Assembly (NCBI GenBank): GCA_041645215.1
Contig: JBAZQK010000008.1
Coordinates: 1,744 to 65,743 of the forward strand
DNA: 64,000 nucleotides
DNA from: Patescibacteria group bacterium
GTDB lineage: Bacteria; Patescibacteriota; Patescibacteriia; Veblenbacterales; UBA10138
Direction: 5' to 3'
Both the position numbers and the translations under genes were made by a program. Shown here piece after piece: positions 16,420 through 25,145 of this stretch. Each line of letters opens with the position of its first letter. Position 1 is the stretch's first letter. Below the pieces are notes generated by a model that saw only the letters and a program-made list of their open reading frames with translations, searched no databases and had not been told where the DNA came from.

Positions 16420-16710
16420 ATGAAAGCTGATAAAAAATGGGATAGCCCGGAGGCGGAGGAGCTTTATGGCGCTATTCTTAAGCTTAAAACCGCGGGCGAG
16501 TGTAAGCGTTTTTTTAGGGATTTGTGCACTCTATCTGAAATTGAGGCAATGATAGATCGTTTTCAGGTTGCCAAAATGGTAAAAAACAACATTCCGTATC
16601 GAGAAATTAGCGCCAAAACCGGCTCAAGTACTGCCACCGTCACCCGTGTGGCTCATTGGCTTCATCATGGGATGGGTGGCTATAAGCTGGCGCTTGAACG
16701 TATGAAATAA
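16420..16710 (+). CDS. YerC/YecD (TrpR-related) family DNA-binding protein
   Basis: 96 aa; EAMIDRFQVAKMV...REISAKTGSSTATVTRV HTH; family typical size. Confidence 0.7.
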   Translation: MKADKKWDSPEAEELYGAILKLKTAGECKRFFRDLCTLSEIEAMIDRFQVAKMVKNNIPYREISAKTGSSTATVTRVAHWLHHGMGGYKLALERMK

Positions 16711-16737
16711 GATCAATCAAGCACTTAAGTTTTAGTT

Positions 16738-16763
16738 ACCCGTTCAGATGAACGGGTTTTTTA
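16738..16763 (+). terminator. Rho-independent terminator after the YerC-like gene
   Basis: ACCCGTTCA-GA-TGAACGGGT followed by TTTTTTATTTT. Confidence 0.65.
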
Positions 16764-16786
16764 TTTTATCAATTAACTAATTATTA

Positions 16787-21696: not shown

Positions 21697-22283
21697 GAGC
21701 GAGAACTTCAACAATCAGGCGTAAAACAAGGGAAACCGACATTGCCGTTACTGTAAAACTTGATGGTACGGGCAAATATCAAGTGGACACCGGCATCGGT
21801 TTTCTGAATCACATGCTGGAACTTTTTTCCAGGCATTCGTTAATAGATCTCACCGTAAAAGCTAAAGGCGATCTGAAAGTAGATGAACATCACACAGTTG
21901 AGGATATTGGAATTTGTTTGGGCGCAGCGCTGCGCCAAAGCCTTGGCGACAAAAAAGGCATTGAGCGGTATGGTTTTTTGTTGCCTATGGATGAAGCTCT
22001 GGCTGAAGCAGCAATTGATTTAGGCGGAAGGGCTTGTCTTGTTTGGAACGCTTCTTTTAAGCGGGAAAAAATAGGAGATATGCCGACCGAGCTTTTCGAG
22101 GATTTTTTTAAGGCGGTAGCTGATAATCTCCAAGCAAATATCCACATCAATGTAAAATACGGCAGGAACGAACACCACATTGCGGAAAGCATATTTAAAG
22201 CGCTTGCAAGAGCCTTGAGGAATGCTGTAAGCCGCGATAAGCGAGCCAAAGATTTATTACCATCTACCAAAGGAAAATTATGA
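21693..22283 (+). CDS. hisB: Imidazoleglycerol-phosphate dehydratase
   Basis: 196 aa; TRETDI...GIGFLNHML...HH..E IGPD motifs. Confidence 0.9.
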   Translation: MRARTSTIRRKTRETDIAVTVKLDGTGKYQVDTGIGFLNHMLELFSRHSLIDLTVKAKGDLKVDEHHTVEDIGICLGAALRQSLGDKKGIERYGFLLPMDEALAEAAIDLGGRACLVWNASFKREKIGDMPTELFEDFFKAVADNLQANIHINVKYGRNEHHIAESIFKALARALRNAVSRDKRAKDLLPSTKGKL

Positions 22284-23005
22284 TTGCCATTATTGACTAC
22301 AAGGCAGGCAATATTGCGTCTGTAAAAAACGCTCTGGAACGACTTGGGCGAGCGTGTGTTGTTACATCCGAGCCGAAAGAAATTTTATCAGCTGACGGCG
22401 TAATATTCCCGGGTCAAGGCCGGGCTGGCGCCGCAATGTCGAACTTAAGAAAAACCGGCATTGATAAGATTATTCCTCAAATTACAAAACCGTTTTTGGG
22501 TATTTGTCTGGGGATGCAACTACTTGGCTCAACTTCCGCAGAAGATAAGACAGAATGCCTTGAGATTTTTCAGGGTGTGTGTCGCAAATTCCCGCCGACA
22601 TTAAAAACCCCGCATCTTGGCTGGAATAAAGTTGAATTGACGGGAGAGTCATCCTTAACCACTGGTATCCAAAACGGGGCATACTTTTATTTTGTGCACT
22701 CATATTACGTTGACCCCGTTAGAAGTCCTCGGCGTAAAAATTGCTGTGCAATTTTTACGCGGTATCAATCAGAGCTCACTACTGAAAGTTGTCGTGATAA
22801 TGACACAATGTCATTATCACGACCAAAGCCGACTTCTAACGGGGTTGATGTTGCGGAAGCTCAAATTGTCGGAAAAACAAGTTATGGTTTTGATTTTCCA
22901 TCGATTATGCAAAAAGGTAATTTTTTTGCAGTCCAGTTTCACCCTGAAAAATCAGGTGAGCAAGGTTTACGATTACTCAATAATTTTTGTGAACTATGTA
23001 TATAA
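22280..23005 (+). CDS. hisH: Imidazole glycerol phosphate synthase glutaminase subunit HisH carrying an in-frame 45-codon TIR-element insertion
   Basis: 241 aa; ...GICLGMQLL...HLGWNKV...YFVHSYYVD [45-aa insert PVRSPRRKNCC...KPTSNGV] DVAEAQ...KGNFFAVQFHPEKS; removal of 22714..22848 restores E. coli-like spacing. Confidence 0.85.
   Translation: MIAIIDYKAGNIASVKNALERLGRACVVTSEPKEILSADGVIFPGQGRAGAAMSNLRKTGIDKIIPQITKPFLGICLGMQLLGSTSAEDKTECLEIFQGVCRKFPPTLKTPHLGWNKVELTGESSLTTGIQNGAYFYFVHSYYVDPVRSPRRKNCCAIFTRYQSELTTESCRDNDTMSLSRPKPTSNGVDVAEAQIVGKTSYGFDFPSIMQKGNFFAVQFHPEKSGEQGLRLLNNFCELCI
22710..22848. mobile_element. CCCCGTTAGAA-TIR element copy d (long form, GTC subtype) inserted in-frame inside hisH
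   Basis: Perfect TIR 22714-22727/22831-22844; direct repeats TTGA 22710-13 and 22845-48; element (131 bp) + one repeat = 135 nt. Internal hairpins GCGTAAAAATTGC-TGT-GCAATTTTTACGC and a 15-bp stem GTCGTGATAATGACA-CAA-TGTCATTATCACGAC. Confidence 0.85.
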
Positions 23006-24471
23006 TACCAGCAATTGACATAATGAACGGCAAATGTGTGCGTTTAGCGCAAGGAAATTTTGCGAAGTCAACCATCTACAACAGCAATCCGGTTGAGGTT
23101 GCGAAAGATTTTGCAAAGCAAGGAGCGCAATCCTTGCATATTGTTGATTTGGACGGCGCAAAATCGGGCTTTCCAGTAAACTTGGAAACAGTCCTTGCCA
23201 TCGTTAAATCGGTCAACATTCCGCTTCAAGTTGGCGGCGGCATACGCTTGTACGATCAGGCGCAAAAATATCTTGAAAATGGCATTGAGAAAATTATTTT
23301 AAGCACTGTTGCCATAGAAGACCCAAAATTGCTGGAGCGTCTATTGGAGGAATTTGGAAGTTATAGAGTTACAGTTTCAGTGGATATTGATGATGGACAA
23401 GTCGCTACTCGCGGCTGGATGAAAAAGAACACAAAAACTGTTCCGGGCCTTGTTAGTTTTCTCAAAAAAGTGGGTATCACATCGGTCATTGTAACCGACA
23501 TTTCCAAAGACGGCTTACTTAAAGGGCCAAATTTTGATTTGGCAAAAGAATTTATCAACGAAGGATTCAAAACTGTTGTGGCTGGCGGCGTATCATCTTT
23601 GGGAGATTTAGAGAAGTTGAATAAGCTAGGTGCATTTGGCGCAATAATTGGGAAAGCAATGTATGAGGGAAAAGTTGATCTGCGAGAAGCGCAGGAAAGA
23701 GTCGCTTATAAAAACAATCTTGCCAAAAGAATCATTCCTTGCCTTGATGTAAAAAATGGGCGGGTAGTAAAGGGCATACGCTTTAGCGATTTGTGCGATG
23801 CTGGTGATCCGGTTGAACTGGGAAAACGATACTGCGAGTTAGGTGCGGACGAGCTTATTTTTCTTGATATAGCCGCCACACTGGAAAATCGCAAAACACT
23901 TTGCGAGTTGGTTTCAAAGATTGCCAAAGAAATAAACATACCTTTTACCGTTGGTGGCGGCATTTCAACGTTTGAGGATATAAAAAATCTCCTTAATGCC
24001 GGGGCCGACAAGGTCTCCATTGGGTCCGCGGCGGTGAAAAATCCTAATTTTGTCAAGGAGGCGGCGGAGTATTTTGGTTCTCAATGCATCGTTATTTCTG
24101 TTGACGCGAAAAGGCAAAATGAGGGCTGGAAAATTTATATAAAGGGCGGGTCAGAAAAAACAGATATTGACGCTATAGAATTTTCCAAACAAATGGAAAA
24201 ACTCGGCGCCGGGGAACTTCTGGTGAATAGTTTAGACCGCGACGGAACCAGAGAAGGATTTGATCTGGAGTTGTTAGAAAGTATTACAGACAGTGTGAAT
24301 ATTCCGGTGATTGCCTCAAGTGGTGCCGGTTCAATGCAAGATTTTCTGGCCGTTTTTCAAAAAACAAACGTTGATGCCGCTCTTGGAGCAAGCATATTCC
24401 ACTATCAAGAAGTAAACATAATGGAACTCAAGAAATTTTTATCCAATAATAATTTACCCATACGCGTATGA
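22996..24471 (+). CDS. hisA-hisF: Fused HisA (ProFAR isomerase) - HisF (IGP synthase cyclase subunit)
   Basis: 491 aa; N-terminal IIPAIDIMNGKCVRL...(HisA), C-terminal RIIPCLDVKNGRVVKG...(HisF); TIM-barrel phosphate-binding GG motifs in both halves. Confidence 0.85.
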   Translation: MYIIPAIDIMNGKCVRLAQGNFAKSTIYNSNPVEVAKDFAKQGAQSLHIVDLDGAKSGFPVNLETVLAIVKSVNIPLQVGGGIRLYDQAQKYLENGIEKIILSTVAIEDPKLLERLLEEFGSYRVTVSVDIDDGQVATRGWMKKNTKTVPGLVSFLKKVGITSVIVTDISKDGLLKGPNFDLAKEFINEGFKTVVAGGVSSLGDLEKLNKLGAFGAIIGKAMYEGKVDLREAQERVAYKNNLAKRIIPCLDVKNGRVVKGIRFSDLCDAGDPVELGKRYCELGADELIFLDIAATLENRKTLCELVSKIAKEINIPFTVGGGISTFEDIKNLLNAGADKVSIGSAAVKNPNFVKEAAEYFGSQCIVISVDAKRQNEGWKIYIKGGSEKTDIDAIEFSKQMEKLGAGELLVNSLDRDGTREGFDLELLESITDSVNIPVIASSGAGSMQDFLAVFQKTNVDAALGASIFHYQEVNIMELKKFLSNNNLPIRV

Positions 24472-25145
24472 ACCCCGTTAGAAATAATATAAAAAATATA
24501 ATAAACCCTGTTAGGAACAAAATTTCTAACGGGGTGAATAAACTTAATATCCAACAATTGGATTTTGATAAGTTGGGCGAGATTATTCCTGCAATCATCC
24601 AAGATGCTGAAACAAAAGCTGTCCTTATGCTGGGATTTATGGATAAAGAGGCACTGAACAAAACAATCAAAAGCAAAAAAGTTACATTTTGGAGTAGAAC
24701 AAAAAAACGACTTTGGGAGAAAGGCGAAATTTCGGGCAATACGCTTGAAGTAATCTCCATTGCTGCCGATTGCGATAATGACATACTTTTGGTTTTGGCA
24801 AAGCCGAAAGGACCAACGTGCCACACCGGCGCTTATTCTTGTTTTGGAACTAAAAAGCAAGGTGGGCTTGAATTTTTGCAAGAGCTTTATGATTTGCTAG
24901 TTGCAAGAAAAAAGGATTTACCGAAAAATTCTTACACGACCTCGCTTTTCAACCAGGGGTTGGTTAAAATTTTAGAGAAGGTTGAGGAAGAATCAGGCGA
25001 GGCGCTGCAAGCTGCCAGAAAAGAGACAAGAACGCGGCTTATTGAGGAAAGCTCCGATTTGTTATATCACCTGTTCGTACTGCTTGTTCAAAAAAATATT
25101 TCTCTCAACGATATTACCCAAGAACTCCAACGCCGAAAAAAATAG
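24468..25145 (+). CDS. hisIE: Bifunctional PR-AMP cyclohydrolase / PR-ATP pyrophosphatase (HisIE)
   Basis: IPAIIQDAETKAVLMLGFMDKEAL (HisI) and LYDLLVARKKD...LYHLFVLL (HisE). The listed ATG 24468 lies in the element; homology suggests the start is the junction GTG at 24534. Confidence 0.85.
   Translation: MNPVRNNIKNIINPVRNKISNGVNKLNIQQLDFDKLGEIIPAIIQDAETKAVLMLGFMDKEALNKTIKSKKVTFWSRTKKRLWEKGEISGNTLEVISIAADCDNDILLVLAKPKGPTCHTGAYSCFGTKKQGGLEFLQELYDLLVARKKDLPKNSYTTSLFNQGLVKILEKVEEESGEALQAARKETRTRLIEESSDLLYHLFVLLVQKNISLNDITQELQRRKK
24469..24538. mobile_element. CCCCGTTAGAA-TIR element copy e (short form, ATT subtype)
   Basis: TIR 24473-24486/24521-24534 (13/14); direct repeats TGAA 24469-72 and 24535-38; degenerate internal copy AACCCTGTTAGGAA. 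Confidence 0.7.

Follow-up and report, generated by a model that had tools for sequence, protein, structure and literature searches.

We analyzed a 64,000-nt window of a Patescibacteria contig (JBAZQK010000008.1) carrying a complete histidine operon, in which a gene that appears to encode an intact histidyl-tRNA synthetase (HisRS) occupies the hisZ position directly 5′ of a short-form hisG. Based on an open reading frame (ORF) listing of the window and on Pfam and NCBIfam scans of the translations, the module comprises nine co-directional genes on the forward strand, from hisR to hisIE (16420-25145, or 16367-25145 with an upstream palindrome included), in the order hisR - HisRS-like gene - short hisG - hisD - hisC::hisN - hisB - hisH - hisA::hisF - hisIE, and these encode all ten steps from phosphoribosyl pyrophosphate (PRPP) and ATP to histidine. 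A first-pass annotation of the same DNA, made from the letters alone, had proposed this gene order, and all of its ORFs were recovered where it had placed them, but it overlooked hisR, which lies inside the range it described.

The first gene of the unit, hisR (16420-16710), matches Pfam Trp_repressor (E = 3.6e-26) and TIGR02531 (98.4 bits, cut-off 42.2), and is followed by the HisRS paralogue (16840-18159; Pfam tRNA-synt_His and HGTP_anticodon). Next comes hisG (18192-18836; TIGR00070 196.5 bits), a 214-aa ATP phosphoribosyltransferase in which the Pfam scan found the HisG domain only (residues 60-211) and no HisG_C regulatory domain; together with the 195-209 aa of the relatives' proteins, this corresponds to the short form (~200-215 aa, catalytic domains only), as had been proposed. 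Further downstream lie the histidinol dehydrogenase gene hisD (18833-20116; TIGR00069 521.7 bits) and hisC::hisN (20131-21696), in which a histidinol-phosphate aminotransferase (TIGR01141 294.6 bits, cut-off 276.55, residues 7-349) is joined to a HAD-type histidinol-phosphatase (hisB_Nterm TIGR01261 196.8 bits, cut-off 140, residues 359-506) whose FLDRDGT and CxCRKP (CPHLPQESCNCRKP) motifs are visible in the translation. The imidazoleglycerol-phosphate dehydratase gene hisB (21693-22283; NF002109 292.9 bits, cut-off 278) matches IGPD only in Pfam, so that both the hisC fusion and the dehydratase-only hisB of the first-pass annotation stand. The operon ends with hisH (22280-23005; glutamine amidotransferase subunit, TIGR01855 205.9 bits, split into two stretches), the 491-aa hisA::hisF fusion (22996-24471; TIGR00007 393.9 bits at residues 3-231 and TIGR00735 434 bits at residues 242-490), which had also been read correctly, and the bifunctional cyclohydrolase/pyrophosphohydrolase gene hisIE (24468-25145; NF002747 264 bits, cut-off 187). 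No canonical hisZ was found within the operon, and a second, bona fide hisS, noted in the first pass and here taken as the housekeeping gene of the host, is present on the forward strand at 53538-54896 (TIGR00442 447.7 bits). At the level of sequence, the gene identities, the fusions and the short form of HisG are established.

The HisRS-like protein scored 404.2 bits against the hisS equivalog TIGR00442 (cut-off 286.75; residues 19-424 of 439) and failed the hisZ model TIGR00443 with 181.6 bits (cut-off 271.65), the reverse of the experimentally characterized HisZ from Lactococcus lactis used as a control (216 bits for hisZ vs. 171 bits for hisS). Its top PDB match was the HisRS 6nhi (E = 6.6e-98), followed by human, trypanosomal and archaeal HisRS, with HisZ structures ranking far lower (1e-22 to 1e-15). 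The class II motif 2 (already recognized in the first pass) and motif 3 arginines and the histidine-binding motifs HisA (RGLDYY) and HisB (GGRYD) are all present. Across 121 sequences of the clade, reaching down to 61% identity, there is conservation of the catalytic residues R111, E113, R119, R121, Q125, D129, R265-G-L-D-Y-Y, GGRYD and R316. In the canonical HisZ 1z7m (L. lactis) and 3od1 (B. halodurans), by contrast, the arginines of the motif 2 loop and of motif 3 have been lost, as has the residue equivalent to R259. The anticodon-binding domain (PF03129 56.5 bits, residues 345-434) likewise retains Q375, A379, G391, E394, G408 and Q410, which are universal in both HisRS types. This domain had been presented as an oddity for a HisZ; it is indeed there, but is not unprecedented, as Geobacteraceae HisZ has one (PMC2923632).

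In a neighbor-joining (NJ) tree, which held just two HisZ sequences, type-2 HisRS, including the HisRS-like clade, were split from bacterial-type HisRS plus HisZ in 99 of 100 replicates; the clade itself sits inside type-2 HisRS on short branches, grouped with the stand-alone gene of locus L098 (89/100), and shows no branch acceleration. Only R79P and P108R (429-aa numbering) set it apart from both HisRS types. These form a reciprocal Arg/Pro swap (LRYDLT to LPYDLT and QPVWR to QRVWR) with intermediates of both kinds, R/R in L099 and L100 and P/P in L006, which suggests that positions 79 and 108 may be neighbors in the fold. We considered R79P as a mark of lost function and rejected it, since it is paired with P108R, intermediates exist, and the same P/R pair is found in the stand-alone L098. 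The first-pass annotation, which labeled the gene hisZ, had itself named clustering with true HisRS and a full set of aminoacylation residues as the signs of a duplicate hisS; both were found, and the label is abandoned. Overall, this evidence indicates that the gene 5′ of hisG is a full, apparently catalytically competent type-2 HisRS, and not a member of the HisZ family.

Relatives were gathered through context look-ups and two collection scans, and their loci were then analyzed by tblastn. A scan of genome contigs with HisRS-like peptide patterns returned mostly Bacteroidota HisRS at ~40% identity, which we used as a negative set, and only one operon-linked relative (L006). For all relatives of at least 58% identity with downstream DNA available, short hisG starts between -16 and +32 nt from the HisRS-like stop (the two genes overlapping by 14-17 nt in relatives), and the same adjacency recurs in L099 (53% identity) and L171. 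It is invariant, and usually overlapping, over ~14 distinct loci. Among more distant HisRS loci, it was absent from all 56 metagenome loci with ≤48% identity and from all 79 genome loci. Moreover, the adjacency survives the move of hisR from the 5′ to the 3′ end of the operon (L096, L171), the relocation of hisIE behind hisG (L099), and the alternation of hisN between fusion to hisC, fusion to hisB and a free gene. The HisRS-like gene is also the best conserved of the cassette (84-87% identity vs. 68-88% for the other genes), its ORF remains intact despite repeat insertions at both ends, and, as is typical of the context of HisZ, it stands beside a short hisG in a genome with a separate hisS.

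In favor of a partner, short HisG has no histidine-sensing domain of its own and shows low activity by itself (PMC10795190). The HisG-partner idea of the first-pass annotation outlives the HisZ label it came with: the strictly conserved position directly 5′ of hisG keeps it plausible. Under this proposal, the operon HisRS would do for short HisG what HisZ does, activating it and conferring sensitivity to histidine, and would probably still be able to bind histidine, ATP and tRNA-His. Our favored reading, in which a catalytically competent HisRS paralogue also serves short HisG as its partner (whether or not it still charges tRNA-His), is in our judgement about as likely as not. It is tempting to go further and speculate about a bifunctional HisRS that would both charge tRNA-His and serve as the allosteric partner of short HisG, and so represent a surviving intermediate stage or else a separate, second origin of the HisZ function. 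With its retained anticodon-binding domain, such an enzyme could even tie the opening step of histidine synthesis to how far tRNA-His is charged. This version we regard as rather unlikely.

Several observations weigh against a HisG-partner role. No sequence feature marks the HisRS-like protein as a HisG binder, and a pure synthetase, too, would be expected to retain every residue related to ATP and tRNA. Two operons with hisA::hisF, L170 (with hisG::hisE) and L172 (with hisR::hisG), have no HisRS-like gene, so that the short HisG of this family apparently works without such a protein or uses another partner. The clade member L098, with P79/R108, lies between aspS/ndk and release factor/L31, a housekeeping context that fits a plain HisRS. 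Finally, short HisG has some, low activity on its own (PMC10795190).

All of these but the first also speak for the best-surviving alternative, namely that the gene encodes a plain second HisRS, either an isoenzyme inducible by histidine starvation and co-regulated with the pathway through HisR or a hitch-hiker in a mobile cassette, with no role in the ATP phosphoribosyltransferase, short HisG acting alone under purely transcriptional control. The score above the hisS cut-off, the complete catalytic and anticodon residues and the short branch inside true HisRS are equally in its favor, and we hold it to be a real though minority possibility. What it accounts for less readily is that the spot 5′ of hisG stays invariant in ~14 loci while hisR, hisIE and hisN change place or fusion partner. 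A redundant synthetase would furthermore be expected to be lost from streamlined candidate phyla radiation (CPR) genomes that have hisS, yet here it came intact through two repeat insertions; and in both operons without the HisRS-like gene, L170 and L172, hisG has gained another, fused domain.

A conventional, catalytically dead HisZ that diverged recently and so still looks like HisRS would explain the hisZ-like place before short hisG, would have a precedent for its anticodon-binding domain in Geobacteraceae (PMC2923632), and could cite the invariant R79P in the LRxD/ExT motif. We nevertheless find it improbable, given the failed hisZ model, the conservation across 121 sequences of catalytic residues of which several are lost in 1z7m and 3od1, the pairing of R79P with P108R (also in the stand-alone L098), and the lack of branch acceleration.

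Gene fusions are a further feature of the operon. HisA::HisF, which carries the plain name "HisF" in NCBI, has at least 120 full-length homologue clusters (~490 aa, 54-100% identity), and hisA and hisF are fused in every complete related locus. The hisC::hisN fusion is found in closer relatives, with hisNB in others (including L099) and a free hisN in L086. Other combinations occur among the relatives: HisG::HisE of 315 aa (L170, 4050-4997), HisAF-HisIE of 687 aa (P0348) and HisH-HisAF of 703 aa (P0350), as well as a 297-aa HisR::HisG (L172, 4148-5041; Trp_repressor at 10-92 and HisG at 142-292), a fusion which hints that HisR may act directly on HisG. As a separate observation, L087 carries a gene for a small MtN3/SWEET-PQ-loop membrane protein (11900-12154) between hisG and hisD, with the HisRS-like/hisG adjacency intact. 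Reviews of his fusions list hisNB, hisIE, HIS7 (hisHF) and HIS4, and neither hisA::hisF nor hisC::hisN is among them (PMC1963479, PMC10138114); a literature search likewise found no description of hisA-hisF fusions or of CPR histidine operons.

The gene at the head of the operon belongs to the YerC/TrpR family (PDB homologues 3frw and 3g1c), and its place 5′ of the operon is also conserved in relatives. In Firmicutes, this HisR/YerC family is a histidine-dependent repressor (PMC9413887). About 40 nt 5′ of hisR lies a perfect 16-bp palindrome, AACGTGTTAACACGTT (16367-16382), which occurs once in the window and is a candidate HisR operator. At this place, close relatives carry the palindrome TACTGTnnTAATACAGTA downstream of TTGACA-17-TATACT; the window shares their -35 region but has its own, different palindrome, and TACTGTnnTAATACAGTA was not found in it.

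A second candidate control element, a terminator/antiterminator switch, lies on the forward strand at 16654-16763, where hisR codons ~82-93 (16661-16690) would pair with 16724-16753, a segment that takes in the 5′ arm of a stem-loop (16738-16757, followed by a T-run) identified as an intrinsic terminator by a terminator scan. In every relative, a hairpin resembling an intrinsic terminator separates hisR from the HisRS-like gene and leaves no space for a promoter. In folding predictions, the minimum free energy structure of the free window RNA is the antiterminator and not the terminator (-36.3 kcal/mol, z = -3.7), as for the divergent L086 (-36.9 kcal/mol, z = -3.0). Among the nine loci folded (the window and its homologues in L001, L005, L086, L087, L090, L091, L093 and L103), the antiterminator architecture was found in all nine, and the terminator reappeared when the first 45 nt were made unavailable for pairing to mimic a translating ribosome; changes on both strands that preserve pairing occur in L091, L093 and L086. 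Just 5′ of the pairing strand are the His codons H79, H82 and H83 (AHWLHHG). All three are present in 13 of 13 HisR genes that precede the terminator, and are absent from L096 and L171 (hisR at the 3′ end of the operon, AAWLKDG), L172 (hisR::hisG), L097 and the solved homologues (NRSLNYG).

Taken together, these features resemble a leader-peptide attenuator whose leader would be the repressor ORF itself. HisR with histidine would repress the promoter 5′ of hisR, and read-through from hisR into the enzyme genes would be set by the terminator, whose 5′ arm would be sequestered by the 3′ coding sequence of hisR unless ribosomes translate through; the three upstream His codons would make this read-through step sensitive to histidine. 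Two points count against this model: in the predicted folds the switch is clean only for a stall at H79, as stalls at H82 or H83 would cover part of the antiterminator strand, and the covariation comes from few, closely related sequences. No T-box or known his leader was found, an Rfam gathering scan of the window matching tRNAs only.

The operon has been repeatedly hit by short palindromic elements resembling miniature inverted-repeat transposable elements (MITEs). The window has seven copies, in which perfect terminal inverted repeats (TIRs; ACCCCGTTAGAAnT) of 14-15 nt enclose variable, unrelated interiors of 44-136 nt; the predicted hairpins range from -19 to -68 kcal/mol. Four copies lie within the operon and three outside it, at 6106-6241, 37170-37213 and 52051-52153. 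The 10-nt TIR core has 15 matches in the window vs. 4.2 expected (none of 100 shuffles had as many), five of the seven copies lie directly after ATGA at a gene start, and flanking duplications of 2-5 bp are present, so that multiple copies, TIRs and a short target duplication are all observed. The elements had no Rfam match in the gathering scan of the window, and no parent transposase was identified, although no search aimed at one was made. We also considered whether the elements are integron attC sites and rejected this, since their GTT...AAC cores run in the reverse order.

Within the operon, these insertions distort three gene starts, those of the HisRS-like gene, hisG and hisIE. One copy (16790-16871, TIR ACCCCGTTAGAAAT), not found in relatives, immediately follows the ATG(A) at 16786 with which the HisRS-like gene originally began. 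A stop codon within this copy separates that ATG from the rest of the gene, which now starts at either ATG 16840 or GTG 16870; GTG 16870 is the orthologous position (429 aa). Another (18150-18226), at the HisRS-like/hisG junction, provides both the TAG stop of the HisRS-like gene (18157-18159) and the ATG start of hisG (18192). A third (24472-24535) follows the ATGA overlap of hisAF stop and hisIE start, and is read as a 22-aa N-terminal extension of HisIE. The fourth, of 133 nt (22713-22845; hairpin -67.9 kcal/mol), sits in frame within hisH, by the conserved FVHSYY strand, and lengthens the protein by 45 aa (241 aa vs. 195-196 aa in relatives); it has no in-frame stop and is simply readable, and all element-hit ORFs remain open. 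The codon after FVHSYYV of hisH was hit in three genomes, namely the window (45 aa), L005 (7392-7460, 24 aa) and L090 (13649-13750, ~33 aa), by elements with identical TIRs and unrelated interiors, and hisH is open in all three. Other inverted repeats stand in the long intergenic flanks of the operon: 30-nt arms 132 nt apart (16044-16235), a perfect 32-nt palindrome (25357-25388) and 26-nt arms 72 nt apart (25392-25515). The independent assembly L089 breaks inside the 16044-16235 repeat, which is thus probably another repeat family.

The first-pass annotation had wondered whether the host genome was a reduced one, and the affiliation of the contig bears this out: NCBI lists the Mfd, TopA and a P-type ATPase of the window under a "Patescibacteria group bacterium" metagenome-assembled genome (MAG). 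The hisS at 53538-54896 has its best matches in HisRS of Candidatus Veblenbacteria and Kerfeldbacteria (68-71% identity), which identifies it as the lineage's own housekeeping gene; a protein from an unbinned assembly (P0122) is 79% identical to it, and its identity with the operon HisRS-like copy is 27%. The same cassette is found at 78-88% protein identity, with different flanks, in other Patescibacteria and in non-CPR RIFCSP "Deltaproteobacteria" MAGs, where its contig, 255 kb long, also encodes succinate dehydrogenase and S1. In the copy from these MAGs designated L001, a large serine recombinase gene (18694-19809; Resolvase, Recombinase and Zn_ribbon_recom) stands ~700 nt 3′ of hisIE and is a possible mobility determinant. 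GC content at third codon positions (GC3) is 0.40 ± 0.03 for the nine his genes and 0.47 ± 0.07 for 41 other ORFs (Mann-Whitney p = 0.003). The module has thus probably been acquired by, or exchanged through, horizontal transfer, which is the simplest reading of the distribution of the cassette. Against it, the GC3 gap is modest, and att-like direct repeats flanking the operon were looked for and not found. A chimera of assembly or binning, joining foreign DNA to a CPR contig, would also produce the lower GC3 and the near-identical cassette in a non-CPR lineage, but is very improbable, given that the independent assembly L089 (31.9-kb contig) has the same operon-to-mfd junction, that the NCBI MAG contig (70.8 kb) spans both sides with accessions continuous across the operon, and that the same palindromic repeat family lies inside the operon and at 6106, 37170 and 52051.

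Among aminoacyl-tRNA synthetase paralogues that metabolism has recruited, HisZ is the textbook example, but to our knowledge only its degenerate end state has been studied so far. With a clade of intact HisRS genes that is widespread and tied to short hisG, the origin of HisZ from a synthetase would become experimentally testable. The question is then whether a working synthetase can already activate and regulate HisG, possibly as the start of such a recruitment. Beyond this, the operon indicates that some Patescibacteria, usually seen as amino-acid auxotrophs, carry a complete and regulated histidine pathway as a seemingly exchangeable module. The family also adds undescribed his fusions (hisA::hisF, hisC::hisN, hisG::hisE and hisR::hisG) and a candidate case of a repressor gene doubling as attenuator leader.

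The operon is a variant of known systems, and its interest lies chiefly in an intact HisRS gene fixed next to short hisG. Among its closest known counterparts is the hetero-octameric HisZ-HisG(short) ATP phosphoribosyltransferase of Lactococcus lactis (1z7m), Thermotoga maritima (1usy), Psychrobacter arcticus (5m8h) and Acinetobacter baumannii (8oy0), with which it shares a gene for a HisRS-derived protein directly 5′ of a short hisG without regulatory domain, and an expected role in activation and histidine feedback. Canonical HisZ, however, is catalytically inactive with residues lost, usually has no anticodon domain, and scores highest on the hisZ model. Another is Geobacteraceae HisZ (Pcar_0202/GSU3307), a full-length HisRS-like protein with an anticodon-binding domain beside short hisG in a genome with a separate, essential hisS (PMC2923632), but it clusters with HisZ, whereas the window protein clusters inside true type-2 HisRS. 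With type-2 (archaeal/eukaryote/Bacteroidota-like) HisRS such as 6nhi, the window protein has 40-45% identity over its full length and the same motifs and domain order, and differs in R79P and P108R, in its embedding in a his operon with translational coupling, and in coexisting with another HisRS.

For regulation, the HisR (YerC) regulon of Firmicutes and others (PMC9413887) likewise places a TrpR-family repressor first, with a palindromic operator by the promoter (a candidate one here); the window differs in the conserved terminator that comes after hisR, with a 5′ arm predicted to pair with the hisR coding sequence, and in the three clade-specific His residues of HisR (AHWLHHG vs. NRSLNYG in 3frw/3g1c). 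Classical his/trp leader-peptide attenuators share the terminator, the mutually exclusive antiterminator, the His codons just upstream and the dependence on translation, all predicted here, but the putative leader is a 96-aa repressor gene with only three His codons, and matches no Rfam family. Among the fusions, the joining of neighboring pathway genes follows known cases, and the HAD-type HisN of the window is of the family of the E. coli HisB N-terminus; hisG::hisE, hisR::hisG, hisH-AF and hisAF-IE of the relatives, like the two fusions of the window, are outside those reviewed (PMC1963479, PMC10138114). Lastly, there are the repeats. Rickettsia palindromic elements and Correia-type MITEs are short, palindromic and multi-copy, end in terminal inverted repeats and can be inserted in frame into protein-coding genes. 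The window family resembles them in its short, palindromic, multi-copy form, its TIRs and its in-frame placement, and differs in its sequence (TIR ACCCCGTTAGAAnT), in its preference for ATGA sites (5/7 copies) and in its highly variable interiors.

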